A stretch of DNA of 64,000 nt, taken from the NCBI GenBank assembly GCA_036676495.1, contig JAKFCT010000027.1:22680-86679 (forward strand). The letters run 5' to 3'. Under the pieces are notes generated by a model. The model saw only the letters and a program-made list of their open reading frames with translations. It searched no databases and had not been told where the DNA came from. Both the position numbers and the translations under genes were made by a program. The DNA is from Candidatus Sericytochromatia bacterium (GTDB lineage: Bacteria > Cyanobacteriota > Sericytochromatia > S15B-MN24 > UBA4093). Shown here one piece after another: positions 5,056 to 25,657 of the stretch; the first letter of the stretch is position 1, and every line of letters starts with the position of its first letter.

Positions 5056-6057
5056 ATGCAAAAGAAGATCCTAGTTACAGGTGCGGATGGCTTTATCGGG
5101 TCACACCTTACCGAAGAACTCATCCGTCGCGGAAACGACGTCCGCGCCTTTGTTCTCTACAACTCGTTCGGATCTTGGGGATGGCTGGATCAAGCGCCCG
5201 CGGAAATCCAGAAAGAGCTTGACGTCTTCGCGGGAGATATTCGGGACCCTCATGGCGTTCAAAAGGCGATGGAAGGTTGCGACGTGGTCCTTCACCTAGC
5301 CGCGCTCATCGCGATTCCGTACTCTTACCATTCGCCCGATACCTACGTCGACACCAACGTCAAGGGAACCCTGAACGTCTTGCAGGCAGCACGCGACCTT
5401 GGCGTCTCGAAGGTGGTCCACACCTCCACGAGCGAGGTCTACGGCACCGCTCGGTTCGTTCCAATCACCGAGGAGCACCCGCTCCAGGGACAATCCCCCT
5501 ACTCGGCGACCAAGATTGGAGCAGATCAACTCGCGCTCTCGTTCCATAGCTCCTTCAACACCCCCGTGGCTGTGATCCGCCCATTCAACACCTACGGGCC
5601 GCGCCAATCCGCCCGCGCCGTCATCCCGACCGTGATCACACAGATGGCCAACGGAACGGACCGACTCAAACTCGGCTCCCTGCACCCCACGCGGGACTTC
5701 AACTACGTCAAGGACACCGTGGCCGGCTTCATCGCCGTCGCCGAGTCGCCGCGCTCGGTCGGCGAGGTCATCAACATCGGTTCCAACTACGAGATCTCAG
5801 TCGGAGAGACGGTCCAGCTCATCGCCGGCCTCATGGGGAAGTCCATCGAAATCCAGACGGACGACGCGCGCCTCCGCCCGGAGAAGAGCGAAGTCGAACG
5901 CCTCTGGGCGGACAACGCGAAGGCCAAGCAACTGCTCGGCTGGGAGCCGCAGTACGGAGGCAAAGAGGGCTTCAAGCGGGGGCTCTCCGAAACGATCGCT
6001 TGGTTCACGGACCCCGCCAACCTCAAGAGCTACAAGAGCCACCTCTACAACCTATGA
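5056..6057 (+). CDS. legB: NAD-dependent NDP-GlcNAc 4,6-dehydratase (LegB)
   Basis: TGADGFIGSHL, LAALIAIPYSYHSPDTYVDTN, TSTSEVYG, YSATK, RPFNTYGPRQSARAVIP, RLRPEKSEVERL. Confidence 0.92.
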   Translation: MQKKILVTGADGFIGSHLTEELIRRGNDVRAFVLYNSFGSWGWLDQAPAEIQKELDVFAGDIRDPHGVQKAMEGCDVVLHLAALIAIPYSYHSPDTYVDTNVKGTLNVLQAARDLGVSKVVHTSTSEVYGTARFVPITEEHPLQGQSPYSATKIGADQLALSFHSSFNTPVAVIRPFNTYGPRQSARAVIPTVITQMANGTDRLKLGSLHPTRDFNYVKDTVAGFIAVAESPRSVGEVINIGSNYEISVGETVQLIAGLMGKSIEIQTDDARLRPEKSEVERLWADNAKAKQLLGWEPQYGGKEGFKRGLSETIAWFTDPANLKSYKSHLYNL

Positions 6058-7241
6058 CAAACCTCTCGCTCGCCCAGACGGTCCTGAATACGCTACACGA
6101 GGTCCTGTCGAAGGATGAAGGGTTCATCGGACTGCATGAGCCCCAGTTCTCAGGCAATGAATGGACCTACGTCAAGGAATGCCTGGATACCGGCTGGGTC
6201 TCCTCGGTCGGCAAGTACGTCGATCGATTTGAGGCAGATCTGGCCGCCTACACGGGCGTCAAGCATGCAGTTGCCGTTGTAAACGGCACAGCTGCATTGC
6301 ATGTTTGCCTCTTGCTGTCTGGAGTTGCTCCCAACGATGAGGTTTTGATCCCCTCTTTGACCTTCGTCGCGACGGCAAATGCCGTAGCCTATTGCGGGGC
6401 CATCCCGCATTTCGTCGATGTCTCGACGGCGAGTCTCGGAATCGACCCGCAACGCCTGGATGCCTACCTTGAGGCGATCGGGGAACCGCGGCCGGACGGC
6501 TTCTTCAATCGACAGACCGGGCGCCGAATCAAGGCAGTTATCCCCATGCACACCTTTGGGCACCCCGTGGATCTCGATCCTCTGGCCCAGGTCTGCGCCC
6601 GGTTCGGCCTCACCCTGATCGAGGATGCGGCGGAAGCGCTGGGCTCGCTCTACAAAGGACACCATGCTGGTCACTGGGGAAGCGTCTCGGCCCTGAGCTT
6701 CAACGGGAACAAGATTCTCACGACGGGTGGGGGCGGTGCAATCCTGACCAACGATGCAGAAATCGCACGCCAGGCGAAACACCTCACTACCACGGCCAAG
6801 TTGCCTCACCGATGGGCCTTCCAGCATGACCGGATCGCCTATAACTACCGGCTTCCAAACCTCAACGCGGCCTTGGGCTGCGCCCAGCTCGAGCAACTCG
6901 ACCGTTTCATCCAGGATAAGCGGCAGCTATCCGAGAAGTACCGGGCCGCTTTCGCGGCGGTGGACGGGGTGACCTTCTTCACGGAACCTGACTATGCCCG
7001 CAGCAACTACTGGCTGAACGCTCTCCTCTTCGATGAGCCGGTCTCCCACCAGCGGGACGAATTCCTGGAGCTTTCAAACCAGCACGGCGTCATGACGCGG
7101 CCCGTCTGGTCCCTGATGCATACATTGCCCATGTACACATCGTGTCCGCGCATGGACCTGTCGGTATCGGAATCCGTCGAGAAACGGCTTGTCAACATTC
7201 CGAGCAGCGCCAAGCTGGGGCAGCAGCACGACCATGCGTAA
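6054..7241 (+). CDS. legC: LegC-family PLP aminotransferase (DegT/DnrJ)
   Basis: LHEP, GWVSSVG, NGTAALH, IEDAAEALGS, SFNGNKILTTGGGG, NYRLPNLNAALG; ATGA overlap with legB. Confidence 0.92.
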   Translation: MTNLSLAQTVLNTLHEVLSKDEGFIGLHEPQFSGNEWTYVKECLDTGWVSSVGKYVDRFEADLAAYTGVKHAVAVVNGTAALHVCLLLSGVAPNDEVLIPSLTFVATANAVAYCGAIPHFVDVSTASLGIDPQRLDAYLEAIGEPRPDGFFNRQTGRRIKAVIPMHTFGHPVDLDPLAQVCARFGLTLIEDAAEALGSLYKGHHAGHWGSVSALSFNGNKILTTGGGGAILTNDAEIARQAKHLTTTAKLPHRWAFQHDRIAYNYRLPNLNAALGCAQLEQLDRFIQDKRQLSEKYRAAFAAVDGVTFFTEPDYARSNYWLNALLFDEPVSHQRDEFLELSNQHGVMTRPVWSLMHTLPMYTSCPRMDLSVSESVEKRLVNIPSSAKLGQQHDHA

Positions 7242-8388
7242 GATCGCGGTAATCACAGGAACCCGGGCAGAGTATGGCCTGCTCTACTGGCTCATTAAAG
7301 CCATCGACGCCGATCCCGACCTCGAACTCCAGGTCGTAGCGACGGGCATGCACCTCGCCCCCGAATTCGGCTCAACCTACCGTTCAATTGAGCAAGATGG
7401 TTTCACCCTTTCCGCCAAGGTCGAGATGCTGCTCTCCAGCGATTCCCCGGTCGGCATCGCGAAGTCGATCGGGCTGGCGACGATCGGCTTTGCCGACACC
7501 TTCGAGCGCTTGCAGCCCGACATGATTGTCGTCCTAGGAGATCGCTTCGAGATCCTCGCCGCCGCGCAGGCGGCCCTGGTCGCACGTATCCCCATCGCAC
7601 ATATCGCAGGGGGGGATGTAACCGAGGGTGCGTTCGACGAGGCGATTCGGCACAGCATCACCAAGATGTCCCACCTTCACTTCGTCACCAATGCGGATGC
7701 CCATGCCCGCGTCCGACAACTCGGCGAAGATCCCTCCCTCATCTTCAACGTGGGTAGCCCCGGCCTCGACCAGGTCCGGAGGCTCGCGCTGTTAAGCCGC
7801 AAGGAACTGGAGGAATCGCTCGGCTTCTCACTCCGAGCCAAGAACCTCCTCGTGACCTTTCATCCCGCCACCCTCGATCTGATCGACCCCAGCGAGCAGT
7901 TCCAGGCCGTGCTCGACGCCCTCGATGCCCTGGGACCGGAGGTCGGCCTAATCCTGACCAAGCCGAATGCGGACAACGGCGGACGGGCCTTGATTCAGAT
8001 GATCGACGCGTTTGTCGAGAGCCGCCCCCACGCCAAGGCATACACCTCCCTGGGCCAGCTGCGTTACTTGAGCGCGATCGCCCACATGGACGCCGTCGTC
8101 GGGAACTCCTCGAGCGGGCTCTACGAGGTTCCTTCTTTCAAGAAGCCCACGATCAATATCGGGGATCGCCAAAAAGGCCGCCTCCAGGCCAACTCGGTCA
8201 TCAACTGCCCCCCCTCCTCCGCCGAGATTCATGAGGCTATCTTGAAGGCCTTCAAACTGGATTGCTCGAACGTGATCAACCCTTATGGCGACGGTCGAAG
8301 CTCCGAGCGCATTCTGGCGCACATCAAGCAGGTGGAAGACCCCAAGCAGCTGCTCAAAAAGCATTTCCACCCATGGGAGGTTTCATGA
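7234..8388 (+). CDS. neuC: Hydrolysing NDP-sugar 2-epimerase (NeuC/LegG)
   Basis: TGTRAEYGLL, TGMHL, LGDRFE, DEAIRHSITKMSHLHF, VGNSSSG, NIGDRQKGR, NPYGDG. Confidence 0.93.
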   Translation: MRKIAVITGTRAEYGLLYWLIKAIDADPDLELQVVATGMHLAPEFGSTYRSIEQDGFTLSAKVEMLLSSDSPVGIAKSIGLATIGFADTFERLQPDMIVVLGDRFEILAAAQAALVARIPIAHIAGGDVTEGAFDEAIRHSITKMSHLHFVTNADAHARVRQLGEDPSLIFNVGSPGLDQVRRLALLSRKELEESLGFSLRAKNLLVTFHPATLDLIDPSEQFQAVLDALDALGPEVGLILTKPNADNGGRALIQMIDAFVESRPHAKAYTSLGQLRYLSAIAHMDAVVGNSSSGLYEVPSFKKPTINIGDRQKGRLQANSVINCPPSSAEIHEAILKAFKLDCSNVINPYGDGRSSERILAHIKQVEDPKQLLKKHFHPWEVS

Positions 8389-9464
8389 CAGCATCCGTCT
8401 ACGTCATAGCCGAGGCGGGAGTCAATCACAACGGCTCCCTGGACATGGCCAAGGAACTTGTCGACGTGGCAGCCTCAGCCGGAGCCGATGCCGTAAAGTT
8501 CCAGACTTTCAGGGCCGAGAAGCTGGTGACCAAGTCAGCCTCCAAGGCTGAGTACCAAACGCGAACCACCCAGCGGGATGAATCCCAGTTCGAAATGCTC
8601 AAACGCTTGGAACTCAGCGACTCTGCTCACTTCGAATTGATCCAGCACTGTCTTTCACGTGGGATCCAGTTCCTGTCCACACCTTTCGATGAGGAAAGCG
8701 TCGACCTGCTCGCACTGCACTTCGACCTGCCCCGATTGAAGCTCAGCTCCGGGGACCTCACGAATGCGCCCCTGCTCCTCAAGTGTGCAACTACGGGAAA
8801 ACCGCTCATTCTGTCCACGGGCATGAGCTCCCTGGCCGAGGTTGAGACCGCACTGGGAGTACTCGCCTTCGGCTATCTTGACCTCGACCTCGCGCCGGGG
8901 CAAGCAGCCTTCAGAACTGCGTTCGCCTCTCCGGAGGGGCAGAGGGTCCTGCAGAGAAACGTCACACTCCTGCATTGTACGACGGAGTATCCGGCCCCGA
9001 TCTCGGAGGTGAACCTCCGGGTCATGGATACGCTTCGGGCTGCCTTCGGACTACCCGTCGGATATTCGGATCACACGGAAGGCATCACCATCCCCGTGGC
9101 CGCGACCGCACGAGGTGCCTCAATCATCGAGAAGCACTTCACCCTGGATCGATCTTTGCCAGGCCCCGATCACAAGGCCTCGCTCGAGCCGGATGAGCTC
9201 CGGCAAATGCTCCAGGCCATCCGACAGGTGGAAGCAGCGCTGGGGCATGGGCTCAAGGTTCCAACCCCGGCCGAGGCAAGGAATGCCGAGGTCGCGCGCA
9301 AGAGCCTCGTGGCCGCTCACGAGATCCGGCAGGGAGAGATCTTTACTCCCGAGAACCTGGTGGTGAAGCGGCCGGGAACAGGAGTTTCGCCGATGGCGTA
9401 CTGGGAAATGCTGGGCCGCATCGCCAATCGCGACTACGCGCCGGACAGCGTGGTGACGCCGTGA
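8385..9464 (+). CDS. neuB: Nonulosonic acid synthase (NeuB/LegI)
   Basis: IAEAGVNHNG, DAVKFQTF, FLSTPFD, LSTGM, LHCTTEYP, GYSDHT, IEKHFTLDR, GPDHKASLEP, C-terminal SAF domain. Confidence 0.95.
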   Translation: MTASVYVIAEAGVNHNGSLDMAKELVDVAASAGADAVKFQTFRAEKLVTKSASKAEYQTRTTQRDESQFEMLKRLELSDSAHFELIQHCLSRGIQFLSTPFDEESVDLLALHFDLPRLKLSSGDLTNAPLLLKCATTGKPLILSTGMSSLAEVETALGVLAFGYLDLDLAPGQAAFRTAFASPEGQRVLQRNVTLLHCTTEYPAPISEVNLRVMDTLRAAFGLPVGYSDHTEGITIPVAATARGASIIEKHFTLDRSLPGPDHKASLEPDELRQMLQAIRQVEAALGHGLKVPTPAEARNAEVARKSLVAAHEIRQGEIFTPENLVVKRPGTGVSPMAYWEMLGRIANRDYAPDSVVTP

Positions 9465-10099
9465 TATCCCCCCTGCTGATCATGGGAAGCGGGGGGCATG
9501 CGAAGGTCCTCCTTGAGGCGCTTCAGGGCTCCGATCAACCAATCCTAGGCATACTGGATCCTTCACCAGCACGGCGAGGGGCGGAGATCTGGGGGGTGCC
9601 GGTGGTGGGCGACGACTCCCGCCTCGCGAAATATGCCCCAAGTGCCGTGCGCCTAGTGAATGGGCTTGGCTCGGTGGGTTCCACCAGGAATCGCCGCTTG
9701 CTGTTCGAGCGGCTTCAGCTTCAAGGCTACGCCTTCGCGGAAGTGATACACGCCACGGCCCTCCTTTCCCCGCATGCCGAGGTGGGAGAAGGCGTGCAGA
9801 TCATGGCGGGGGCGATCATCCAGAGCGACAGCCGGCTCGGCCGGAATGTGCTCGTTAACACCCGGGCAGTGATCGAGCATGATTGCATCGTGAGCGACCA
9901 CGTGCACGTGGCCACCGGAGCCATCCTCGCAGGAGGGGTGCACGTCGATGTGGGAGCCCACATCGGGGCTGGCGCCGTCCTTAAGCAAGGGGTACACGTC
10001 GGAAAGGACAGCTGCATCGGAGCCGGAGCGGTAGTTATTCGCGACGTGCCAGCAGGAGCTACGGTAGTGGGGGTGCCCGCCAAGGAGGTGAATCGATGA
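9461..10099 (+). CDS. neuD: NeuD/PglD-family sugar acetyltransferase
   Basis: GSGGHAKV, IEHDC, hexapeptide repeats, VVGVPAK. Confidence 0.9.
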   Translation: MISPLLIMGSGGHAKVLLEALQGSDQPILGILDPSPARRGAEIWGVPVVGDDSRLAKYAPSAVRLVNGLGSVGSTRNRRLLFERLQLQGYAFAEVIHATALLSPHAEVGEGVQIMAGAIIQSDSRLGRNVLVNTRAVIEHDCIVSDHVHVATGAILAGGVHVDVGAHIGAGAVLKQGVHVGKDSCIGAGAVVIRDVPAGATVVGVPAKEVNR

Positions 10100-11157
10100 G
10101 TCCCACAACGGGCGCGTGGAAAAAGACCTTGATCCCGCCATCGGCGTCGATCCGGGATGCGATTTCTGCCATCGAAGCAGGCGTCATGCAGCTCGCAATG
10201 GTGGTCGACGAACAAATGCGTTTGCTTGGAACCGTTACCGACGGGGACGTGCGACGCGGATTACTGCAGGGTCATACCCTGGAGTCCCCGACCAACCTGG
10301 TGATGAACTCCCTCCCCACAGTGGCGCGCTCACATGAGGATTCCCAAACCATCCTAGCCCTCATGAAGCTCAAGCAGCTCCGGCAGATCCCCATTGTCGA
10401 CGAGTTCGGCAGGGTGATGGGAGTCGAACTGCTCGACGAGCTGATCCAGGATAAGGAGCGAGATAATCGGGTCCTGCTGATGGCAGGAGGACTTGGAAGC
10501 CGCCTGGCGCCATTGACCGACAACTGCCCCAAGCCAATGCTCAAGGTCGGCGGGAAGCCTCTACTTGAAACCATCCTCGCCAATTTCATCGACCAAGGCT
10601 TCCGGCACTTCTATTTCTCCGTAAACTACCTGGCGGACATGGTGAAAGCTCACTTCGGCGACGGCTCGCGCTGGGGTGTCCAGATTACCTACCTGCACGA
10701 AAAGGAGAAGCTGGGAACGGCGGGGGCCATGACCATGATCCGCGATGAACTAACCCACCCGCTCATTGTGATGAACGGGGATCTGCTTACGAAGGTTAAC
10801 TTCCGCCAAATGCTCGATCTTCACGTCGAGCAGCAGGCACATGCGACCATGGGGGTCCGTGAGTTCAACTTCCAGGTCCCCTACGGGGTGGTTCGCCTCG
10901 AAAACAACCGCCTAGTAGGTATCGACGAGAAGCCCCTCCAGAAGTTCTTCATCAGCGCAGGAATCTATGTAATCAACCCTGATCTACTCGAATTACTGCC
11001 CAAGCATACGTACTACAACATGCCGACCTTCTTCGAAGAGTTGATCAACCAGCGGTACCGTACTTCGGTCTTCCCGATCCGGGAGTACTGGCTGGATATA
11101 GGCCAAATGAATGACTTCAAGCGCGCAAATGGAGAATTTTCCGAGGTGTTTCAATGA
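10096..11157 (+). CDS. CBS-domain nucleotidyltransferase (PtmE/LegX-like)
   Basis: GTVTDGDVRR CBS pair; MAGGLGSRLAPLT, PKPML, LGTAG, VMNGDLLT, YWLDIG. Confidence 0.9.
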   Translation: MSPTTGAWKKTLIPPSASIRDAISAIEAGVMQLAMVVDEQMRLLGTVTDGDVRRGLLQGHTLESPTNLVMNSLPTVARSHEDSQTILALMKLKQLRQIPIVDEFGRVMGVELLDELIQDKERDNRVLLMAGGLGSRLAPLTDNCPKPMLKVGGKPLLETILANFIDQGFRHFYFSVNYLADMVKAHFGDGSRWGVQITYLHEKEKLGTAGAMTMIRDELTHPLIVMNGDLLTKVNFRQMLDLHVEQQAHATMGVREFNFQVPYGVVRLENNRLVGIDEKPLQKFFISAGIYVINPDLLELLPKHTYYNMPTFFEELINQRYRTSVFPIREYWLDIGQMNDFKRANGEFSEVFQ

Positions 11158-11888
11158 CCCCTTCGTCGGTCCTTTGGCTCGTAACCGCTCGGTCAGGCTC
11201 CAAAGGCATTCCCGATAAGAACATCAAGCCCCTCAGGGGGATTCCACTACTGGGCTATCGAATTCAGACGGCCTTGGCATCGCGCCACCCTAGCGAAGTC
11301 TGGATCACCACCGATAGCCCTCGCTATGCCGAGCTAGCCGTGGCCTGGGGAGCCCGGGTGCCATTCCTACGGCCCGAACACCTATCCACTGACCAAGCCC
11401 GTTCAATCGATGTAGTCCTACATGCCATGGCATGGGCAGAAAGCAACGGATATTGCTTCAAAGCGGTCGGGCTCCTGGAGCCCACCTCACCCTTCACCAA
11501 GACAGCCTGGCTGGACGAAGCCGTCGACAACCTGCTCCAGGATCCGGACGCCAAGACGCTGGTCGCCGTTCGCGAAGCGCGCCCAAGCAGCTATTACGTG
11601 CAGCCGGCGGCCCGTTACCTGGACGACCTATATGACCGCATCCGGCTGCATGGCGTCCTTAGGCGGCAGGACGAGGCCATGGAGGTAACCCCTAGCGGAA
11701 ACCTCTACCTCGCGAAGTGGGAGGCCCTCAAAGAGGAGAAGAATTTCTACTCGAGCCGAACCTTGATGCAACTCATCCCCGATCCGTACGGGCTGGAGAT
11801 CGATCAGCCCCTTGATTGGGCCTGGGCCGAGTTCTTGTTGGAAAAAACTATCATCTCCCAAGCTGAGCTTGGCATACACCGTACCTAG
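11154..11888 (+). CDS. neuA: CMP-nonulosonate synthetase (NeuA/LegF family)
   Basis: ARSGSKGIPDKNI, PFLRP, LLEPTSPF, EIDQPLDW. Confidence 0.88.
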   Translation: MTPSSVLWLVTARSGSKGIPDKNIKPLRGIPLLGYRIQTALASRHPSEVWITTDSPRYAELAVAWGARVPFLRPEHLSTDQARSIDVVLHAMAWAESNGYCFKAVGLLEPTSPFTKTAWLDEAVDNLLQDPDAKTLVAVREARPSSYYVQPAARYLDDLYDRIRLHGVLRRQDEAMEVTPSGNLYLAKWEALKEEKNFYSSRTLMQLIPDPYGLEIDQPLDWAWAEFLLEKTIISQAELGIHRT

Positions 11889-11904
11889 GAGGGAGCGGAT
11901 TGGC

Positions 11905-13239
11905 ATGACCCTGTTCAACGAGACCATCACCAACTTCCAAAATTCTGCTCAGCTGAGAGAGAAGGCCCGGCGCCTGATTCCAGCAGGGGCCCACACGTAC
12001 AGCAAAGGCGATGATCAATTCCCGCAGTTATCGCCGGGTTTCATCATCAGAGGCAAGGGAACCCGGGTCTGGGACCCCGACGGAAACGAGTTCATAGATT
12101 GGGGCATGGGCCTCCGCTCGGTGATTCTCGGCCATGCCTACGAACCTGTTCTCGCGGCAGTACGTGAGCAACTCGAGCTAGGCTCAAACTTCGTGCGTCC
12201 CGCCCCCCTGGAGGCGGATGTCGCTGAACTCCTGGTCGATCTCATTCCCTCGGCGGAAATGGTCAAGTTCGCCAAAAACGGCTCGGACGTCACCACGGCA
12301 GCGGTGAAGCTCGCCCGCGCATTTACCGGCCGAGACATGGTGGTACGCTGCCAGGATCAGCCGTTCTTCAGCGTGAATGATTGGTTCATCGGGGACACCC
12401 CGGCAAATGCGGGGGTGCCTCAGGTCGTGCAGAACCTTACCAAGCGCTTCCGCTACAACGATGCCGACCACCTCGAACAGGTCCTCAACGAGCACCGCGG
12501 CCAGGTGGCTTGCGTCATCCTCGAGGCGGCCGCAACGACGGCACCGCTGCCGGGCTTCCTTGAGCGCGTGCGAGAACTTACCCGGACCCATGGAGTCGTC
12601 CTGATCTTCGACGAGATGATCTCGGGCTTCCGCTGGGACCCGCGCGGGGCCCAACACTACTACGGGGTCACCCCCGATCTTTCGACCTTCGGCAAGGCCC
12701 TGGCCAATGGATTCGCCCTCTCAGCGCTCGTGGGCCGCCGTGACATCATGGAGCTGGGCGGCCTCGAGCACAGGCGCGAGCGAGTCTTCCTGCTATCCAC
12801 GACCAATGGTGGGGAGACCCATGCACTGGCGGCGGCACGAGCGACCATCGAGGCCCTGCGGGACGGAGAGGCCACACGTCACATCTGGACAACCGGAAGG
12901 AAGCTGATGGAGGGCTTCAACGCGCTCGCTCATGAGTTCGGCCTGGCCGACCATGTGCGGATGGACGGGCTCGCTTGCAGCCCATACCAGGTCTTCCTCA
13001 ACGCGGATGGGCAAGTGGACCTCGCGCTGCGCACATTGTACCTTCAGGAAACGATCCGTCATGGAGTCCTCATTCCCTACATCGCGGTTTCGGCCGCCCA
13101 TGGCGATGCGGACATCGACCGAACCCTCGAGGCATCCCGCAAGGCCATGCCCCTCCTCCGCGAAGCCCTCGAACGCGGCAACACGGACGGCCTTCTCGTG
13201 GGCCCTGCCGTCAAGCCGGTTTTCCGCAAGTACAACTAG
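11905..13239 (+). CDS. Class III PLP aminotransferase (GSA-aminomutase-like), probable sugar-tailoring enzyme
   Basis: GAHTYSKGDDQFP, VWDPDGNEFID, KFAKNGSD, LIFDEMISGFR, PDLSTFGKALANG. Confidence 0.85.
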   Translation: MTLFNETITNFQNSAQLREKARRLIPAGAHTYSKGDDQFPQLSPGFIIRGKGTRVWDPDGNEFIDWGMGLRSVILGHAYEPVLAAVREQLELGSNFVRPAPLEADVAELLVDLIPSAEMVKFAKNGSDVTTAAVKLARAFTGRDMVVRCQDQPFFSVNDWFIGDTPANAGVPQVVQNLTKRFRYNDADHLEQVLNEHRGQVACVILEAAATTAPLPGFLERVRELTRTHGVVLIFDEMISGFRWDPRGAQHYYGVTPDLSTFGKALANGFALSALVGRRDIMELGGLEHRRERVFLLSTTNGGETHALAAARATIEALRDGEATRHIWTTGRKLMEGFNALAHEFGLADHVRMDGLACSPYQVFLNADGQVDLALRTLYLQETIRHGVLIPYIAVSAAHGDADIDRTLEASRKAMPLLREALERGNTDGLLVGPAVKPVFRKYN

Positions 13240-13247
13240 GAAAGACC

Positions 13248-14033
13248 ATGAGCATCCGGACCGTTTGCGCCCTTCAGATGACGATCGTCGAAGGGCAAGG
13301 AACCCGAAATCGCGACACCCTCGCCTCCATGTTGGACGCCGCCCCTGGCGCCGACTTGTACCTGGCACCCGAGTTATGGAGCAGCGGCTACCTCCATGAC
13401 CGCTGGCCGGAAATGGCGGATCAGGACACGCCTGAGGCAATGACCTGGATGGCGCGGCAGGCAGCCCATCGGAACGCTTGGCTCGGTGGGTCCCTGGTGA
13501 CCCGGACCGAATCCGGAGCGCTAGCGAACCGCTTCGTGCTATTCAACCGTCAGGGAGAACTGGTAGGCTCCTACGACAAGGCGCACCTTTTCCCTCCGAT
13601 GCGAGAGCCTCAGTTCCTGCAGCCCGGGAATCAGCTGCCCCTCTTCGACGTGGAGGGGCTCCGCGTGGCCCCGGCCATTTGCTACGATCTGCGCTTCCCT
13701 GAGATGTTTCGGAGACAGGCTCTACGGGGAGTCGACCTGTTCCTGGTGCCCAGCGAATGGCCACACCCACGGAGCCGTGTCCTCCGCGTGCTCTCCGAAG
13801 CTCGCGCCATGGAGAACCAGGCCTTTCTCCTGCTCGCAAATCGGACGGGGCCAGATGGCAACGGGAGCGACTTCTGCGGCGGATCGGGCCTCTTCGGCCC
13901 GTTCGGTCCCATCGGGGAGTGCCCCCAGACCGAAGGCCCCCTTGTCTTCGAACTCGACATGACCGTGCTTGAGAAAGCGCGCTCAGCCCTGGCCATATGG
14001 GGTGAGCGACGAAAGGGAATCGACTTTGACTAA
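13248..14033 (+). CDS. Carbon-nitrogen hydrolase, omega-amidase (MtnU/YafV)-like
   Basis: E-K-C triad: PELWSSGY, YDKAHLF, ICYDLRFPE; ARAMENQ. Confidence 0.88.
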   Translation: MSIRTVCALQMTIVEGQGTRNRDTLASMLDAAPGADLYLAPELWSSGYLHDRWPEMADQDTPEAMTWMARQAAHRNAWLGGSLVTRTESGALANRFVLFNRQGELVGSYDKAHLFPPMREPQFLQPGNQLPLFDVEGLRVAPAICYDLRFPEMFRRQALRGVDLFLVPSEWPHPRSRVLRVLSEARAMENQAFLLLANRTGPDGNGSDFCGGSGLFGPFGPIGECPQTEGPLVFELDMTVLEKARSALAIWGERRKGIDFD

Positions 14034-14850
14034 TCCGAACGCATCCCTCGACCGTTTCGGCCTAGACGGCAAGATCGTGGTCGTCACGGGCGGAACCGGC
14101 ATTCTGGGCAGCCTTTACTGTACGCGCCTCGCCGAGGCGGGCGCCGAGGTGGTGGTCGCCGACATCGACTCGGAGCAATGCAGTAGCCTCGCCGCTCAGC
14201 TTCAAGCGCGTACGGGGCGGCGAGCATGGGGGATCTCCGTGGATCTCTCGAAGGAACCCTCCGTCGCCGCCTGGGCTCAGGAAATCCTCCAAACTTGTGG
14301 CCGGGTGGATGTCCTCATCAACAATGCAGCTACGAAATCCCCCAACTTCTTCGCCCCTCTCGAGCGCTTCCCGCTGGAGGACTGGAACCGCGTCATGGCG
14401 GTCAACGTCACCGGCATCTTCTTGACCTCCAAGCTACTTGGAGCCGCGATGGCCGAGCGGGGCTCCGGAAGCATCATCAACGTCAGCTCGATCTATGGCG
14501 TGGTGGGGCCGGATCAACGTATCTACGAAGGGTCCTGGTACGAGGATCTCGGAGGAGCCATCAATACTCCACTGATCTACTCCGCCACGAAGGGAGCGGT
14601 CATCGCGATGACTCGCTACCTCGCCACATACTGGGGTCCGAAGGGCGTACGCGCGAACACCCTCACCCCGGGTGGAGTCAGTTCGGGTCAGAACAGCACC
14701 TTCATGCAGAAGTACAGCTACCGTGTGCCTATGGGCCGCATGGCCGAAGCAGAGGAAATGATCGGCGCCCTGCTCTTCCTAGCCTCGGACGCCTCCTCGT
14801 ACGTCAACGGCCAGAACATGGTCGTCGATGGAGGCTGGACGGCCTGGTAG
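14026..14850 (+). CDS. SDR oxidoreductase (PtmA/ElaC-like)
   Basis: TGGTGILG, INNA, SSIYG, YSATK, MTRYLATYWG, TPGGV, VDGGWTAW; TTG start after AAAGGGA. Confidence 0.88.
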   Translation: MTNPNASLDRFGLDGKIVVVTGGTGILGSLYCTRLAEAGAEVVVADIDSEQCSSLAAQLQARTGRRAWGISVDLSKEPSVAAWAQEILQTCGRVDVLINNAATKSPNFFAPLERFPLEDWNRVMAVNVTGIFLTSKLLGAAMAERGSGSIINVSSIYGVVGPDQRIYEGSWYEDLGGAINTPLIYSATKGAVIAMTRYLATYWGPKGVRANTLTPGGVSSGQNSTFMQKYSYRVPMGRMAEAEEMIGALLFLASDASSYVNGQNMVVDGGWTAW

Positions 14851-14865: not shown

Positions 14866-16332
14866 ATGAAGATCAGCAACCTCCAGAACATCGCTATCAT
14901 TTCTGGGTCCAATCAGATCGTTCGCATCCTTGCCCTCCTTACCAAGGTCTACCTTGGCAAGGTTTTCACACCTGCCCAGTTCGGGGTGATCAGCCTCGGT
15001 GAGCTCTTCCTGTTCTACGCAGACAAGGCGTACTCGCCGATCCGAGGGGGCATGGATCGGGAAGTCCCACGGTTGAAGGGAAGGGAAGAATACGCCGAGG
15101 CGGGCTCGCTCCAAGCCTTGTCCCTTTACGCGATTGCGCTGCTCTCGGTCCTCATTTCCGCAGGCCTACTCCTTGCCATCGCCGTTTACCAGCCCCAGCA
15201 GCACTACGCACTCGCGCTCTACGCCGTCATCAACATTCCCCTGGCAATCGTCAACTACTTCCGTATCTACCTCAAGACAGAACGACGATTCGACAAGATC
15301 GGCCTCTTCTACCTGGCACATTCCGCCGCCACCTTCATCCTGACGATCGCCTTCCTCAGAACCGCAGCCGTAACCACCTACCTTTACATCCTGCTGGTCA
15401 CCAACCTCATCTTTTCGATCTTCCTCCTGATGCAGTTTCGCACCAGCCCAGCCCAGCGTCCGAACCGCCAGAGCCTAAAGCTGTTGGCGAGCGCGGGGCT
15501 TGCCATGGCCTCCTACGATCTGGCTTTCGCTCTGTTCGAAGGCGTCGATCGCCTCGTCATCGCCTCGGTGCTCGGCAGTACGGCCCTCGGGCTTTATGCC
15601 TTTCCCGTCCTCATCGCGCAGAACATCCTGATCATCCCGAACTCGATCAACAGCGTGATCTTTCCGGAGTACTTCGAAGCTGTGGCCAAGAAAGACCAAG
15701 GGGCTCCCCAACTCCTTGAGAGTTCCACAGTCCTGGCACAGGCCATCACCCCCATGGTCATCGCAGCGGCCTGGTTCGGATACCCGGTCCTGCTGGATTT
15801 CTGGCTGTCCAACTTTGCTCAAAGCGAGGAGTTCGGCAAAATCCTCTTTCTCTCAGCCTTCTGGAGCGCTTCCTTCACGTTTGGCAGCATCGCCCTGCTC
15901 GCCCACAAGCGAACTCGGACTCTCATTTCCGCCATTCTGGTCGCAACGGCTATTGCTGTCATGCTTTTCTTTCTGACCGCCTCCAGCCAAGCTCAAGGAC
16001 TTCCCCAAGTCCTCGAACGGGTCGCCTGGGCCTCGACCGCAGCGGCGGCGACCTTGTCCATCCTGCTATCGGTCTTGGCCGACCGCTGCCATCGTCGCGC
16101 GGCTTGGTTCTCGGCATCAAAGCTGTTAAAGCAAGCTGGCTTGTTCGCCTGGCTCGCCATCCTACTGCTTCAGATCGATACACTCGCCATCCGTGCCTTG
16201 GACCATGTCCTGCTACAGGCCATCGTCGGAATGGTGGTCTTCTGCTTAGGTTATTACCCATTGCTCGCCGTCGCTGAGATTAAACCGCTTACAGCCTGGG
16301 TAAAGAAAAGGATGCCCCCGGCCCCTATTTAG
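14866..16332 (+). CDS. wzx: Polysaccharide flippase (Wzx)
   Basis: Many TM segments; DRLVIASVLGSTALGLY motif; locus context. Confidence 0.8.
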   Translation: MKISNLQNIAIISGSNQIVRILALLTKVYLGKVFTPAQFGVISLGELFLFYADKAYSPIRGGMDREVPRLKGREEYAEAGSLQALSLYAIALLSVLISAGLLLAIAVYQPQQHYALALYAVINIPLAIVNYFRIYLKTERRFDKIGLFYLAHSAATFILTIAFLRTAAVTTYLYILLVTNLIFSIFLLMQFRTSPAQRPNRQSLKLLASAGLAMASYDLAFALFEGVDRLVIASVLGSTALGLYAFPVLIAQNILIIPNSINSVIFPEYFEAVAKKDQGAPQLLESSTVLAQAITPMVIAAAWFGYPVLLDFWLSNFAQSEEFGKILFLSAFWSASFTFGSIALLAHKRTRTLISAILVATAIAVMLFFLTASSQAQGLPQVLERVAWASTAAAATLSILLSVLADRCHRRAAWFSASKLLKQAGLFAWLAILLLQIDTLAIRALDHVLLQAIVGMVVFCLGYYPLLAVAEIKPLTAWVKKRMPPAPI

Positions 16333-16449
16333 CAAGCGTCTCAGCCCGTTCTCCACCCCGAACATCAATCCGGAAGCCAGGTTTCCTTTTCTCGTGGTTA
16401 TTTCATCCCGGAACCACCATCAGCCGTTCCGCTCTAGGTGATCAACAGC

Positions 16450-17877
16450 ATGAAGACCAAGATATCCTTCAACATCTCCGAGTACTCCACCAACCAACTC
16501 TATTTCTCACTTAGGGATATCCTCTCTGCGCACCTCGACGCCGAGTTCCTCTACCCTAACAACGTGAAGCCGGCGAACTTCTCCAAGTTTATGGCCCCCA
16601 GCATCACCTCCGAGAACTCGCTCAACTACTTTGAGTTCACAAAAAGCCTACGTATCACCGACCTCAACCAAGAACTGGACGCAGCCGAGAAACTTTACGG
16701 CAACCCGTTTCTGGGTGAGTACATCTTTTCGGACCGATGGCTGGCCGACAAGAGCAGGGAGGAGATCCGTCTGCGCATCCTCCAGTACGTACGTTTCTGG
16801 GAGCACTTCTTCGAGCGCTTTAGACCGAACTACTTCATCGCTGGCGGCATTTCGGGCGCTTATCAGTACATCGCTCATGCGGTCAGCCGACACTATGGCG
16901 TCACGCCCCTCTACCTGTTCGGCTCGCAAGTGCCCGGACACTTCTCGATCACGAGCCAACCCTCGCTTTATCGAAACCGCCGCACATGGCTCACCCTGCC
17001 CGACCGCGAGGCGATTCGCGCCTCGGTCGACGGCTACCTCGCGACGGTCTTCGCCAAGGGTGGCAAGGTCGACCTTGATCAGGGCTTGCTCAAGACCGCG
17101 AGTTTCAACACCCTGATCAACCGCGACAACGTGTCCCGGGCCCTCTCGAAGGTAGCCAGACTGGAAAGCCCGCGGCGTATCCTCACGGCACTTGCCACCA
17201 AGCTTACCCCCCCGGTCCGGTGGAGACTTGCACAGCGCTACTTCCAACTTGACTTTCACCCGGGCTCCGTTCCATTCGTCTACTACCCCCTCCATTTTCA
17301 GCCGGAAGCTTCGACTCTGGTCTGGGCGCCCTACTTCGATAACCAGCTGGCCCTCCTAGAGAACATCTCGAAAAGCCTTCCGGTAGGCATGTCCCTCGTC
17401 GTCAAGGAGCACGTCGTAGGGAAGGGGACCCGTCCACTTTCCTTCTATCGGCGCCTTACCGAGTTGAAGAACATCGTCATCCTTTCCCCTGAATTCGACG
17501 GCATGGAGCTAGTGCGACACGCCCACCTGGTGTTGACCACCAGCGGAACCACGGCCTGGGAGGCCCTGCTGCTCAAAAAGCATCCGATCATCTTCGGCAA
17601 CTACTGGCTGGAAGAGAGCCGCCACGTTACCAAGGTCACGGATCTCACGACCCTGAAGCACCAGATCTGTCGGTTGCTGGACCAGGACTTCGAGGCCGAC
17701 GATGACTGGTATCGCTTCGTTTACCAGGAAATCAAGAGTTGTTATCCTGGAGTCTTCAACGAACCCAAATCCCTCCCGCGGGTCCTCGACCCCGAAAATG
17801 TCAGACTCATCGCGGACGCCTTGCTCGAAGAGTTCAATCATGCTCCCCGGGCCATGAGCACCGCTCAGGGGAGATAG
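16450..17877 (+). CDS. KpsS/Capsule_synth-like glycosyltransferase, probable nonulosonate transferase
   Basis: YYPLHFQPEAST, LVVKEH, TTSGTTAWEALLLKKHPIIFG. Confidence 0.7.
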   Translation: MKTKISFNISEYSTNQLYFSLRDILSAHLDAEFLYPNNVKPANFSKFMAPSITSENSLNYFEFTKSLRITDLNQELDAAEKLYGNPFLGEYIFSDRWLADKSREEIRLRILQYVRFWEHFFERFRPNYFIAGGISGAYQYIAHAVSRHYGVTPLYLFGSQVPGHFSITSQPSLYRNRRTWLTLPDREAIRASVDGYLATVFAKGGKVDLDQGLLKTASFNTLINRDNVSRALSKVARLESPRRILTALATKLTPPVRWRLAQRYFQLDFHPGSVPFVYYPLHFQPEASTLVWAPYFDNQLALLENISKSLPVGMSLVVKEHVVGKGTRPLSFYRRLTELKNIVILSPEFDGMELVRHAHLVLTTSGTTAWEALLLKKHPIIFGNYWLEESRHVTKVTDLTTLKHQICRLLDQDFEADDDWYRFVYQEIKSCYPGVFNEPKSLPRVLDPENVRLIADALLEEFNHAPRAMSTAQGR

Positions 17878-19004: not shown

Positions 19005-20474
19005 GTGATGGCTCATGTCAGGGTCTGGCTCAAGCCCGAATATCTTTGGCTGAGCGTAGGGTTGCTATTAGCCGCACTGGTGGGTGCGACCGCCGTGGTC
19101 GCACCCGGCATCCTCGCCGGCCTGACATACTTGGCCCTCGTACTCGGCACCCTGGCACTCACCATGCGGTTCTGGGGGGAATTCGGGTTCGTCATCACCA
19201 TCACCCTGCTCATCGTCCTGCAGAACATTCTCATCATGAGCGGGACGCACCTCGGCGATCCGATGTTCGGACGGGTCGTGCTCGTCACCAAAGAGCTGTT
19301 CCTCCTCGGTTTCCTCGGTTTGATCGCCCTGATGCGCCCGCGCTCCTCTTTACGAATCGCGCAAAGAGAACGATGGCTGCTCGTGCTTGGAGGCATCCTG
19401 GCTGGTGCCACCGGGCTGACCTTTCTCGTTCACCACCTTCCGGTGGCCTCGGTGGTCTTCGGGCTCCGCTCCCTCACCACCCCGATCCTCTTCTACCTGC
19501 TGGGACGCTTGATCTGGCTGCGAACCGCGTGGCGTATGCCGCTCGACGGGCTCTTCCTGACACTCGCATGCGCCCTCGCCCTCTACGGATTCGTTGAGGC
19601 CTACATGCTCCCGCAGTCCTGGGCCATCAACCTCGGACTCCCCTTCATGTACGCCATTAAGGGACTGGACGTCCTGGAGTTCCGCAACTACGGGCTCTTG
19701 CCCAACAACTTCTTCTTCACCGACCTGGACGGCCCGATCCGCCGCATGACCTCCTTCATCTACGAACCCTTATCCTACGGCTACATACAAGGCACGCTGC
19801 TGCTCTTCATCATCGCGCGCACCTTCCGGAGGGGGTTTCAAGCCGTCCTCCTCAACCCTCTCATCTGGTTGCTTGGCCTGTCGCTGTTGCTGAACTTCGG
19901 CCGGGGCCCCATCCTCTTCTTCATCATCGGCCTCACCTTCCTCCTGGTGCCGACCCCCCGCCGTGCTGTTTGGCTGGCACTGCTGCTCACGGCATTCGGT
20001 GGCTCCCTCTATGCACTCGGGCTCATCCGAGACAACACCGGGGGAACCCACATCCTAGCCCTCTTGTCTGGCTTCTCGTACGCCATGCAACACCCGTTGG
20101 GCCTCGGTATCGGCAGTGCCGGCTTCATGGCCCAGTACTACCTGAGCGACGGCACCGAGACGACGGCTGCCAATGAAAGCTTCGTCGGCATGCTCGGGAC
20201 GCAACTCGGCATGATCGGCCTGATCGCCTATCTGATTGTCCACATCAGCATCGCTAAACGCCTGCTACAGGGGCACAACCCCAGGAGTTACGGAGCAAGA
20301 GCCTATTACTTCCGGGCCGCCGCCGGCGCGTTGATTGGTCTCAATGTCTCGGCGCTGTTTACCGCTTCGTCCCATGGCTTTCTTTCCTGCGGCTTGGTGT
20401 ATATGCTGGCAGGAATGATGATGGCGGTCCTAGAGAACGACCTCGACGACGCCCCCGTGAAAGGTGATGCATGA
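19005..20474 (+). CDS. wzy: Putative polysaccharide polymerase / O-antigen ligase-like membrane protein
   Basis: Many TM helices; RMTSFIYEP, GRG, HPLGLGIG and ESF..MLGTQLGMIGL (Wzy_C-like). Confidence 0.7.
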   Translation: MMAHVRVWLKPEYLWLSVGLLLAALVGATAVVAPGILAGLTYLALVLGTLALTMRFWGEFGFVITITLLIVLQNILIMSGTHLGDPMFGRVVLVTKELFLLGFLGLIALMRPRSSLRIAQRERWLLVLGGILAGATGLTFLVHHLPVASVVFGLRSLTTPILFYLLGRLIWLRTAWRMPLDGLFLTLACALALYGFVEAYMLPQSWAINLGLPFMYAIKGLDVLEFRNYGLLPNNFFFTDLDGPIRRMTSFIYEPLSYGYIQGTLLLFIIARTFRRGFQAVLLNPLIWLLGLSLLLNFGRGPILFFIIGLTFLLVPTPRRAVWLALLLTAFGGSLYALGLIRDNTGGTHILALLSGFSYAMQHPLGLGIGSAGFMAQYYLSDGTETTAANESFVGMLGTQLGMIGLIAYLIVHISIAKRLLQGHNPRSYGARAYYFRAAAGALIGLNVSALFTASSHGFLSCGLVYMLAGMMMAVLENDLDDAPVKGDA

Positions 20475-24030: not shown

Positions 24031-24612
24031 GCGGCAGCAAAGCTTCGGCAAAGCCCTGATTGCGATGCTCATCAAGAAACTGGATAGGGTAACGGGACGC
24101 TAATACTTGACCAGAAGGCGACTCGTCTGGAAGAGCAGTTCGCCGGGGCGCATCTCTTACAGGCGACTCTCACGGCGTTGAGCGGTGCGGTAGTCTACGT
24201 GGACTATCAGTTCTCGAAGGAGGTGGAGCACTCCACCAGGAATACAAGGGTCCGCTACGGCTACGTCCAATGCCTCACAGGCTCGACCGGCGGATTCGAG
24301 CGCATTCACGCGCACAAGGTGACCGAGCACGCCGGTCGCAGAGGCAATGCTCGGAACTCGCTGAAGCGGACCTAGCATCGAGGAAAAAAGCGAGATGCGG
24401 CCCAAATCTTGAGTCCTGGTAGGTGGAAGGAGACACTCAAAACCCAACAAGAGGCAGGTATCATGAGCCTTCCAACCCTGTATCAGAGCGATTACTGACG
24501 AACCCGCGTGTGAGATGACATCTAGATGTGGTGCCCTGCGCTAAGGCCGATCAAACGGTCGAACTCTAGCCAATATCCAGGAGCTTCGCGGGTTGGATCC
24601 CGCTCGATTCCT

Positions 24613-24621
24613 TGCTATAAT
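24613..24621 (+). promoter_or_regulatory. Extended -10 promoter (TGCTATAAT) for pfkB
   Basis: Perfect TGnTATAAT about 45 nt before the ATG. Confidence 0.65.
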
Positions 24622-24666
24622 GGCCCTGTTTGCCCGAACAGGGCCTTTTCCAGACTATCGAGGGGA

Positions 24667-25617
24667 ATGATGAGCAAACTCACGATCGTAGGGTCCGTCG
24701 CACTCGACTCCGTGCGCACGCCCTTTGGCGAAGTCACCGATGCGCTCGGCGGCTCGGCCACCCACGCCTCCATGTCCGCCAGCTTCTTCTGCCCGGTCAA
24801 CATGGTCGGCGTCGTCGGCACCGACTTCGCGGAAGATCACATCGAGCTGTTCCGCAACCGGCAGATCAACGTCGAAGGGCTCCAGCGCGCCGACGGCAAG
24901 ACCTTCCGCTGGAAGGGCTACTACGAGCAGGACATGAACCAGGCCCACACCCTGCTCACCGACCTCAACGTCTTCGCCGACTTCCAGCCCACCCTCCCCG
25001 AGAACTACTGCGACTCCGAGTTCCTCTTCCTGGGCAACATCGACCCCAAGCTCCAGCTCTACGTGCTCGACCAGATGGAGCGCCCCAAGCTCACCGTCTG
25101 CGACACCATGAACTTCTGGATCACCAGCAAGCGCGCCGAGCTCGTCGAGGTCCTCAAGCGGGTCGACGTCGTCTTGCTCAACGAAGGTGAAGCACGCCAG
25201 CTCTGCGACACCACCAACCTCCTGACCGCCGCCAAGCGCGTCCTCGACCTCGGCCCCAAGGCCGTCGTCATCAAGAAGGGCGAGCACGGCGCGTTCCTGG
25301 TCCAGCAGAACGGCCACATCTTCATCTCCCCCGGCTACCCCCTCGAAGAGGTCTCCGACCCCACTGGCGCCGGTGACTCCTTCGCGGGCGGCTTGCTCGG
25401 CTACCTCGCCTACACCGACGACCTCTCGGACGACAACTTCCGCCGCGCCATCATCATCGGCTCGGTCATGGCCTCCTACAACGTCGAGAAGTTCTCGTGC
25501 GATCGCCTCCGCAGCCTCACCCACGACGAGGTGATGATGCGCTACAAGGTCCTGCGCAAGATGAGCGGCTTCGAGAAGCTGCCGGAGACCACCATCTTTC
25601 AGCCCGCCCTGGTCTAG
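24667..25617 (+). CDS. PfkB/ribokinase-family kinase
   Basis: VGSVALD, GGSA, LNEGEA, KKGEHG, DPTGAGDSFAGG; strongly GC-biased codons. Confidence 0.92.
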   Translation: MMSKLTIVGSVALDSVRTPFGEVTDALGGSATHASMSASFFCPVNMVGVVGTDFAEDHIELFRNRQINVEGLQRADGKTFRWKGYYEQDMNQAHTLLTDLNVFADFQPTLPENYCDSEFLFLGNIDPKLQLYVLDQMERPKLTVCDTMNFWITSKRAELVEVLKRVDVVLLNEGEARQLCDTTNLLTAAKRVLDLGPKAVVIKKGEHGAFLVQQNGHIFISPGYPLEEVSDPTGAGDSFAGGLLGYLAYTDDLSDDNFRRAIIIGSVMASYNVEKFSCDRLRSLTHDEVMMRYKVLRKMSGFEKLPETTIFQPALV

Positions 25618-25657
25618 CGCCCGCGGCTGTTGCGAAAGGCAACGAGCCTCGCTCTAA
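25614..25657 (+). repeat. Short copy of the CTAG-flanked miniature element
   Basis: CTAGCGCCCGCGGCTGTTGCGAAAGGCAACGAGCCTCGCTCTAA; shares both ends with 57326-57388. Confidence 0.65.

Follow-up and report, generated by a model that had tools for sequence, protein, structure and literature searches.

The question raised by this locus is what three closely packed genes contribute directly behind a full gene set for CMP-legionaminic acid. The locus lies in a 64,000-nucleotide stretch from Candidatus Sericytochromatia bacterium (assembly GCA_036676495.1, contig JAKFCT010000027.1, positions 22,680 to 86,679; the whole stretch is referred to here as the window), and the three genes encode a class III aminotransferase dependent on pyridoxal 5'-phosphate (PLP), here AT3, a carbon–nitrogen (CN) hydrolase, here NIT, and a short-chain dehydrogenase/reductase (SDR). 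Taken together, the data point to a late tailoring module in which AT3 probably aminates an oxidized CMP-nonulosonate. The more specific reading, i.e. that the SDR oxidizes the C8 hydroxyl group of CMP-legionaminate, that AT3 aminates with glutamine and that NIT removes the 2-oxoglutaramate left behind, has in our estimate about even prospects.

The three genes are:
11905..13239, + strand: AT3, PRK06209-type class III PLP aminotransferase, 444 aa (PF00202; NF004856, 632 bits)
13248..14033, + strand: NIT, CN-hydrolase, YafV/Nit2-like, putative omega-amidase, 261 aa (PF00795)
14026..14850, + strand: SDR, ElaC/PtmA-like, NAD-type, putative C8 oxidase, 274 aa (PF13561/PF00106)

The aminotransferase and its family

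AT3 has the class III fold (PF00202, 140 bits), and its translation contains FDEMISGFR and FGKALANG, which we take to be the motifs of the Asp residue and of the Lys residue that binds PLP. It passes the NCBIfam model NF004856/PRK06209 (cut-off 486), on which the homologues from loci L103, L003 and L035 score 620–745 bits. At least 7,787 proteins match AT3 at E<=1e-100 (8,000 candidates scored), and all informative names among the 120 homologues listed read 'glutamate-1-semialdehyde 2,1-aminomutase' (GSA aminomutase), the haem-pathway enzyme HemL. An identity of AT3 with HemL, which would have spoken against the sequence-only reading, is ruled out: AT3 reaches 224 bits on the hemL model TIGR00713 (cut-off 527.3), and a separate, true HemL with 607 bits on the same model and 34% identity to AT3 is encoded on contig C29 of the same genome. 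Nor does AT3 show the housekeeping distribution of HemL, since only 3 of 47 genomes in the class encode it (E<=1e-80), its own included, and 127 of 160 loci with homologues are sugar clusters. Because of this sugar-locus context and the co-resident true HemL, the name of the NF004856/PRK06209 family is probably wrong. The GSA-aminomutase label would then be a systematic misannotation that affects thousands of proteins. Among solved structures, GSA aminomutases are closest to AT3, at 185 bits.

The 160 loci comprise the best 80 of 522 relatives in species genomes and the best 80 of 492 in metagenomes. Judged by their neighbours, 93 are of a CDP-hexose type and 33 are nonulosonate loci, one (L046) is both, and 33, mostly on short contigs, are unassignable; with L046 the nonulosonate loci number 34. 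In a FastTree phylogeny of 161 rows (158 of the 160 loci, the window, one paralogue and the genome's own HemL; two loci with open reading frames (ORFs) below 400 aa were excluded), the CDP-context proteins form one clade of 121 rows (support 99) and the nonulosonate-context proteins a basal grade. The window AT3 belongs to an eight-row clade (support 99) with members solely from nonulosonate or unassigned loci. A tandem of class III aminotransferases, the second a distant paralogue (branch length 1.05), was seen in L108 (1090-3788), between NeuB and an oxidoreductase of the Gfo/Idh/MocA family (Gfo).

The CDP-hexose-type clusters encode a glucose-1-phosphate cytidylyltransferase, 4,6-dehydratase-like and 3,5-epimerase-like proteins, a C-methyltransferase, DUF4910 and PIG-L; no DegT aminotransferase was seen in four annotated examples, and a fifth, L183, has the same make-up. 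Details of such clusters (L035:1962-13758; L009, L045, L081; L183:8989-16410) are a TylC3-like C-methyltransferase, DUF4910/DUF2172/HTH_47 and often a pyruvyl transferase, and the 'GSA aminomutase' family provides the only aminotransferase seen. They probably make an uncharacterized branched amino sugar. A plasmid collection contains 37 AT3 matches, all below 60% identity; one of them, H1, has the CDP-hexose make-up.

Oxidoreductases beside AT3

Partners of AT3 were scanned within 2.5 kb in 37 loci of the nonulosonate clade with hidden Markov models (HMMs) that were built from the same proteins and are therefore partly circular (thresholds 40 bits for Gfo, 120 for SDR and 60 for hydrolase), and were counted in the 20 loci in which AT3 is flanked on either side by 1.1 kb or more. 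Eight of these have Gfo plus hydrolase, eight Gfo only, two Gfo plus SDR, one (L103) SDR only and one (L115) neither Gfo nor SDR. An NAD(P) oxidoreductase thus accompanies AT3 in 19 of 20 loci and Gfo in 18 of 20, the SDR-only form being rare; the 17 loci with shorter flanks show the same partners wherever sequence exists.

A CMP-transferase also usually adjoins AT3. By Pfam annotation, CMP-transferase, Gfo, AT3, CN-hydrolase and NeuB are arranged together in L003, L012, L031, L061, L099, L100 and L127; L005 has the order AT3-Gfo-SDR-CMP-transferase and L118 the order NeuB-Gfo-(CMP-transferase/PtmE fusion)-AT3-SDR. In L105, AT3 follows a fusion of Gfo and CMP-transferase, which fits action on a CMP-sugar. 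This fusion protein of Gfo/Idh/MocA and CTP_transf_3 has 594 aa (L105:6193-7974). Fusions of CTP_transf_3 with NTP_transferase (NeuA-PtmE) of 565 and 571 aa occur in L118 (1895-3589) and L109 (5096-6808). A search of the PDB with an AT3-linked Gfo gave no match at E<=1e-8.

Two relatives are particularly informative. L103, a 189-kb metagenome contig (35.7% GC), matches the window in all nine genes and in their order, at identities of 78% (LegB), 64% (LegC), 65% (NeuC), 64% (NeuB), 44% (NeuD), 53% (PtmE), 37% (NeuA), 69% (AT3) and 70% (SDR); AT3 and SDR are adjacent, and neither Gfo nor a CN-hydrolase was found across 17.3 kb. A genome of the same genus as that of the window (G017) has LegB to PtmE at 56–84% identity, followed by a CMP-transferase of another type, a Gfo with 45% identity to that of L003 and an AT3 that is 87% identical, with no SDR or CN-hydrolase after it. 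In an IQ-TREE phylogeny of 23 proteins, the AT3 proteins of the window and of this genome are sisters (support 100/99), with L103 next (87/87). Thus, within one genus, Gfo and SDR (plus hydrolase) have been exchanged around a conserved AT3, as expected if either oxidoreductase can feed AT3. Directly after AT3 in this genome, where the window has hydrolase and SDR, lies a radical-SAM/SPASM gene (L181:7592-8689, minus strand), with an epimerase gene next to it.

In the window itself a Gfo is absent, as had been noted before. PF01408, the Gfo/Idh/MocA domain, has no match on the contig (C27), and a scan of the genome, a 92%-complete metagenome-assembled genome (MAG), with the AT3-linked Gfo HMM gave a sole, weak match of 67.9 bits on contig C36, while the Gfo proteins of other loci score 188–538 bits. 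An oxidase of the type of ElaA, the Gfo of the Acinetobacter ElaABC system, is therefore missing from the contig and from this genome scan.

The SDR as a candidate oxidase

The best solved relative of the window SDR is 6UH2 (143 bits), the structure used as search model for solving ElaC of Acinetobacter baumannii KL49. In that organism ElaA, a Gfo, is proposed to oxidize the C8 hydroxyl group of CMP-activated diacetyl-legionaminic acid (CMP-Leg5,7Ac2), and ElaC, an SDR, to reduce the ketone to the 8-epimer (PMC13656337). The same source names the ElaC residues S145, Y147, I156, Y157, M164, P165, Y168, K172, Q205, F209 and Y213 as serving catalysis and the binding of CMP-8-keto-Leg, and it assigns the CMP site to an elongated loop. 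In an alignment to 6UH2, and not to ElaC itself, 10 of these 11 residues are identical in the window SDR (M164 is T). The spacing of the named residues fits this alignment exactly, with S-I-Y, R-I-Y, N-T-P, YxxxK and Q...F...Y as the aligned motifs. The window SDR also has an elongated loop ahead of its catalytic Tyr, longer by seven residues in this alignment. Nine of the named residues (all but Y147, which is Y157 in the window) are invariant in five AT3-linked SDRs. So is D46, which presumably marks a preference for NAD.

The hydrolase

NIT is a CN-hydrolase (PF00795, 119 bits) with the motifs of the Glu-Lys-Cys triad (PELW, KAHLF and ICYD) in its translation; all motifs quoted in the sequence-only reading (PELW..GY, KAHLF, ICYDLRFPE and EWPHPR) are indeed present, and the protein is YafV/Nit-like. 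Its best NCBIfam match is the YafV-type model NF007757/PRK10438 (135 bits), with deaminated-glutathione amidase next, and its best solved relatives are uncharacterized CN-hydrolases (mouse Nit2 scores 71 bits). It is the top YafV-like gene of the genome (the runner-up has 61.9 bits), and a homologue at E<=1e-30 is absent from all nine other genomes of the family.

Of the 34 nonulosonate-context loci (L046 included), 9 have a CN-hydrolase close to AT3, as do 7 of the 93 loci from the CDP context. A tree of 31 hydrolases splits those linked to AT3 into at least four lineages from both sugar contexts, and in it NIT groups with CDP-context hydrolases (support 100, at most 45% identity) and not with the Acidobacterial nonulosonate ones. 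AT3 clusters of two sugar contexts have thus acquired a CN-hydrolase on at least four occasions. This repeated recruitment of differing Nit1/Nit2/YafV-like hydrolases argues that the hydrolase serves the aminotransferase reaction itself. Known substrates of the Nit/YafV branch are the keto-acid amides that glutamine, asparagine or glutathione leave behind as amino donors, and NIT is fairly probably an omega-amidase for such a donor by-product.

Pathway and proposed mechanism

The genes upstream of AT3 supply the presumed substrate, and a flippase gene follows the SDR:
5056..6057, + strand: legB, NAD-dependent 4,6-dehydratase (TIGR04180, 535 bits, cut-off 475; start inferred from the translation)
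6054..7241, + strand: legC, DegT-type aminotransferase (TIGR04181, 550 bits, cut-off 420; PF01041; start inferred)
7234..8388, + strand: neuC/legG, hydrolysing 2-epimerase (TIGR03568, 476 bits, cut-off 236)
8385..9464, + strand: neuB/legI, nonulosonate synthase (TIGR03569, 497 bits, cut-off 400; PF03102 plus SAF; start at 8373 or 8385)
9461..10099, + strand: neuD/legH, N-acetyltransferase (TIGR03570, 230 bits, cut-off 161)
10096..11157, + strand: ptmE-type gene, CBS plus sugar-1-phosphate nucleotidyltransferase (PF00571 plus PF00483)
11154..11888, + strand: neuA/legF-type CMP-nonulosonate synthetase (CTP_transf_3), in an ElaB-like position (PF02348, 74 bits)
14866..16332, + strand: wzx-type flippase, the next gene of the operon (PF13440/PF01943)

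The set for CMP-legionaminic acid is complete, and five of its seven genes pass NCBIfam cut-offs; the exceptions are PtmE, assigned by its Pfam domains (CBS plus NTP_transferase), and NeuA, assigned by PF02348 (its 133 bits on the PseF model TIGR03584 lie under the cut-off of 206). The range 11154-14850 covers neuA and the trio. AT3 starts with ATG 16 nt past the neuA stop, preceded by GGAGGGAG; NIT starts with ATG 8 nt past the AT3 stop; the SDR presumably starts with a TTG that gives an 8-nt overlap with the end of NIT (its longest ORF begins at 13969); and wzx starts 15 nt past the SDR stop. Genes, place and order of the complete set and of the tight trio behind it are as had been described from the letters.

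In the mechanism that we propose, LegB, LegC, NeuD, NeuC, NeuB, PtmE and NeuA would provide CMP-Leg5,7Ac2, and the trio would act on it late. In a first step, the ElaC-like, NAD-type SDR would oxidize a secondary hydroxyl group of the CMP-sugar to a ketone, most likely that at C8. In a second step, AT3 would aminate this ketone to yield CMP-8-amino-8-deoxy-legionaminate, i.e. a 5,7,8-triamino nonulosonate. In a third, NIT would hydrolyse the keto-acid amide of a glutamine (or asparagine) donor, which would render the amination irreversible and recycle 2-oxoglutarate. In most other loci an ElaA-like Gfo may be the oxidase, the window and L103 then representing a rarer variant with an SDR oxidase. 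Provided that AT3 does aminate an oxidized CMP-nonulosonate, we hold with good confidence that the position is C8, which is favoured because of the ElaC-like pocket of the SDR and of the natural 8-amino nonulosonate of Flexibacter maritimus; and provided that C8 is aminated, the SDR is quite probably the oxidase here.

Several points weigh against this scheme. The SDR reaches 190.5 bits on the PtmA model PRK09186, under the cut-off of 255, and slightly more (199 bits) on PRK08213, also under the cut-off; it is therefore called ElaC/PtmA-like here and not a member. Its earlier description in these terms stands as far as the conserved ElaC residues and 6UH2 as the best structure are concerned, and falls short at the PRK09186 cut-off. 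ElaC itself is proposed to work in the direction of reduction, from the 8-keto sugar to the 8-epi alcohol (PMC13656337). With ElaC-type stereospecificity, the D-glycero C8 hydroxyl group of legionaminic acid would not be oxidizable, so that the window SDR would need another facial specificity. In addition, the roles of ElaA and ElaC rest on genetics, structures and docking, not on enzymology (PMC13656337), and ptmA has been placed in the first, GDP-N-acetylglucosamine (GDP-GlcNAc) segment of its pathway, with PtmA and PtmF as suppliers of precursor (PMC4481668, following Schoenhofen 2009).

Other points on this side concern the partners. The trio had been expected at other nonulosonate loci; the exact AT3-NIT-SDR combination without Gfo occurs in 0 of the 160 loci and is absent from G017, and pairs are all that recurs. 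SDR and Gfo had been expected to exclude each other, but L005, L118 and L119/L120 carry Gfo, AT3 and SDR together, which leaves the role of the SDR there unexplained; the SDR is therefore not simply a substitute for Gfo. The hydrolase is missing from most AT3 loci (11 of the 20 nonulosonate loci with two flanks), and NIT misses the cut-off of the YafV-type omega-amidase model (135 versus 249 bits). Finally, we found no assayed enzyme of the AT3 family in the literature, and we infer every chemical step. On balance, the idea of an amination is borne out in part: it gains from an AT3 that is not HemL, from its oxidoreductase partners, the exchange within a genus, the ElaC residues and the recruitment of hydrolases, and it loses in the recurrence of the trio, in mutual exclusivity and in the novelty of the chemistry.

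Alternative explanations

Could the SDR be an ordinary ElaC-type reductase, partner in an epimerization, while AT3 and NIT act on behalf of an amino-acyl substituent or of a different sugar within the repeat unit? The AT3 family and the nearest hydrolase relatives of NIT do occur in CDP-hexose-type clusters, and the locus encodes further glycosyltransferases and a pyruvyl transferase. Still, this is rather unlikely: the window AT3 is placed in the nonulosonate clade and outside the CDP clade, AT3 and NIT lie between neuA and the SDR with spacers of 8–16 nt or an overlap, no ElaA-like oxidase is at hand to feed a reductase, and the locus holds no extra acyltransferase. L103 also keeps the order neuA-AT3-SDR, and there AT3 and SDR are 69–70% identical to those of the window versus 37–44% for NeuA and NeuD.

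Oxidation and transamination of the CMP-nonulosonate may also proceed as we propose but at another carbon. The free secondary hydroxyl groups of Leg5,7Ac2 are those at C4 and C8, and reaction at C4 would give a 4,5,7-triamino sugar. Nothing in the analysis fixes the position, and where Gfo, AT3 and SDR share a locus, each of the two oxidoreductases could act at a position of its own. What makes C4 unlikely is that the window SDR retains those residues with which docking into ElaC positions C8 at the nicotinamide, Q205 binding the 4-hydroxyl group (PMC13656337), and that the 8-amino sugar is the only natural nonulosonate with an extra amino group that we found in print.

Supply of a precursor is a further alternative, in which SDR, AT3 and NIT would make glucosamine-phosphate or GDP-glucosamine, with the hydrolase as glutaminase or amidase, comparable to PtmA/PtmF of Campylobacter. 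The placement of ptmA in the GDP-GlcNAc segment (PMC4481668) and the PtmA-like SDR (190 bits on PRK09186) would suit this role. It becomes quite improbable in view of AT3 in PseB-type, i.e. UDP-GlcNAc-based, loci (L005, L026 and L041), where no GDP-sugar precursor is needed, of the Gfo fused to a CMP-transferase in L105, and of comparative genetics in Acinetobacter, which ties ElaA/ElaC to C8 epimerization, lga genes going with Leg and lga plus ela genes with 8-epi-Leg (8eLeg; PMC9676051).

Very improbable, in turn, is that AT3 works as a PLP-dependent epimerase or aminomutase, for instance by inverting or shifting the amino group at C7 beside an 8-ketone. Its nearest solved relatives are aminomutases (185 bits), and natural C7 epimers of Leg exist, namely acinetaminic acid (Aci) and its 8-epimer 8eAci (PMC5595891); however, the Acinetobacter aci modules for C7 epimers contain SDRs (AciB and AciE) and, in the part of PMC5595891 available, no class III enzyme, the N5 and N7 amines are acetylated prior to condensation, and the omega-amidase-like hydrolases, recruited several times over, speak for a genuine by-product of an amino donor. 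With AciB and AciE being SDRs (PMC5595891), AT3 is also ruled out as an extra gene of the acinetaminic-acid module. That AT3 makes tetrapyrrole precursors, as the passed NF004856 equivalog and the name shared by its homologues say, has next to no probability, given the true HemL on C29, the low TIGR00713 score, the sugar clusters and the patchy distribution described above.

The surrounding locus

The first 24 kb of the window form a Wzx/Wzy-type polysaccharide locus on the + strand, to which the leg genes and the trio belong and which encodes Wza, an initiating transferase, Wzx, Wzz, glycosyltransferases and a CsaB-like pyruvyl transferase. The GC content at third codon positions (GC3) is 0.60–0.83 in the locus genes, the trio included, versus 0.85–0.89 in flanking housekeeping genes; the regions contrasted are 1-24030 and 24526-33062. 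The locus looks horizontally acquired, judging from this lower GC3 and from the patchy occurrence of AT3 and NIT among relatives. Three ORFs of 381–489 aa without Pfam or NCBIfam match (16438-17877, 19005-20474 and 1532-2677) may encode the Wzy polymerase and other membrane proteins. Beyond the locus, right after a full-length MetH, 31206-33062 encodes a 619-aa protein with homocysteine S-methyltransferase and methylenetetrahydrofolate reductase domains. Elsewhere in the genome (G000:C29:29871-34749), a second NeuB (208 bits) lies beside a PseB-type dehydratase (233 bits) and a DegT aminotransferase, which suggests an additional pseudaminic-acid cluster in the MAG.

Known products and significance

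Nonulosonic acids decorate capsules, O-antigens and flagella, where they shape recognition by immune systems and phages. The 8-amino sugar of Flexibacter maritimus has been known chemically since 2003. It is an 8-amino-3,5,7,8,9-pentadeoxynonulosonate of the O-polysaccharide (review PMC3210612), so that a triamino nonulosonate is not new chemistry. For the O-antigen locus of the Tenacibaculum maritimum type strain, the available part of PMC9796276 names no class III aminotransferase, Gfo or neuB and therefore neither links the module to the 8-amino sugar nor separates it from it. Our literature search found two reviews that describe the 8-amino sugar, no paper on its biosynthesis, and no function assigned to the class III aminotransferases of nonulosonate loci; such genes, class III or GSA-aminomutase-like, are listed without a function in Legionella Sg6/12 lipopolysaccharide loci (PMC3694923) and in Aeromonas flagellin islands, where Group I islands hold a class III aminotransferase (PMC7874193). 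The product class is known, its genes are not, and the window would represent a rare SDR-plus-amidase variant of a widespread, uncharacterized module.

A possible lead, and no more than a lead, to a test case for the module is Aeromonas hydrophila AH-1, whose polar flagellin carries an unexplained 403-Da Pse-like glycan with some fragment ions 1 m/z unit off those of acetylated Pse (PMC4691044), and which has been cited to exemplify the small flagellin islands, Group I or III (PMC7874193).

In a wider proposal, which we hold to be slightly less likely than not, PRK06209 is a family of more than 7,700 glutamine-using aminotransferases that act on oxidized nucleotide sugars, with a nonulosonate branch that makes CMP-8-amino-8-deoxy-legionaminic and -pseudaminic acids by means of interchangeable Gfo or SDR oxidases and that provides the missing genetics of the Flexibacter maritimus sugar. 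If so, a function would be assigned to thousands of proteins that currently bear the name of a haem-pathway enzyme, and a sugar known since 2003 would gain a biosynthetic basis; an ElaC-type SDR could work as a C8 oxidase; and triamino analogues of sialic acid would be widespread in Acidobacteriota, Myxococcota and Bacillota and also occur in cultivable bacteria that encode close AT3 homologues, among them Pelosinus (71% identity in Pelosinus fermentans) and Achromobacter. With one more amino group, an anionic sugar would become zwitterionic, and possibly the polysaccharide with it, and a gene signature for the extra group would allow glycan charge to be predicted from genomes. The work would also test the proposed ElaA/ElaC-type roles, such enzymes being under consideration as antivirulence targets, and the recurrent pairing of an aminotransferase with an omega-amidase would carry the glutamine-transaminase ratchet beyond amino-acid salvage into the tailoring of glycans.

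Comparison with known systems

ElaA/ElaB/ElaC of A. baumannii KL49 is similar in that a cassette follows the lga/leg genes and includes a CMP-transferase and, here, an ElaC-like SDR with conserved residues; elsewhere AT3 stands beside a Gfo/Idh/MocA protein, the kind of enzyme that ElaA is (a likeness by family, not by ElaA sequence). In contrast, ElaA is missing from the window, an aminotransferase gene and a CN-hydrolase gene separate the ElaB-like gene from the ElaC-like one, and the proposed outcome is amination and not epimerization. The gene set thus overlaps with ElaABC but lacks ElaA, and the window is therefore not an ElaABC system.

KdnB/KdnA of Shewanella, which converts Kdo (3-deoxy-D-manno-octulosonic acid) to 8-amino-Kdo, follows the same chemical logic: in an ulosonic acid, a hydroxyl group of the terminal region is oxidized by a dehydrogenase and then replaced by an amino group through a PLP aminotransferase. 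By description, KdnB, an iron-type alcohol dehydrogenase, is of another family than the window SDR, and Kdo has eight carbons and a primary alcohol. The majority architecture of Gfo with AT3 (18 of 20 loci) mirrors the pairs WbpB/WbpE and NtdC/NtdA, in which a Gfo/Idh/MocA dehydrogenase and an aminotransferase act on sugars by oxidation and transamination, although WbpE and NtdA belong to the DegT, fold-type I sugar class, unlike AT3, and their substrates are UDP-sugars or sugar phosphates. Aminoglycoside 6'-aminotransferases (PDB 7LM0/7LLD, 'C-6' aminotransferase') share with AT3 the class III, GSA-aminomutase-like type and aminate an oxidized sugar carbon; they are distant from it (weak PDB matches of 94–99 bits) and use pseudo-oligosaccharide aldehydes, not CMP-sugar ketones.

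For the hydrolase, the models are the couples of glutamine transaminase and omega-amidase, such as MtnE/MtnU, glutamine transaminase K (GTK)/Nit2 and, in E. coli, YafV. Although NIT stays below the YafV cut-off and has a class III enzyme of a sugar locus as its partner, the window resembles these couples in that a transaminase adjoins a YafV/Nit-like CN-hydrolase whose Glu-Lys-Cys triad is intact.

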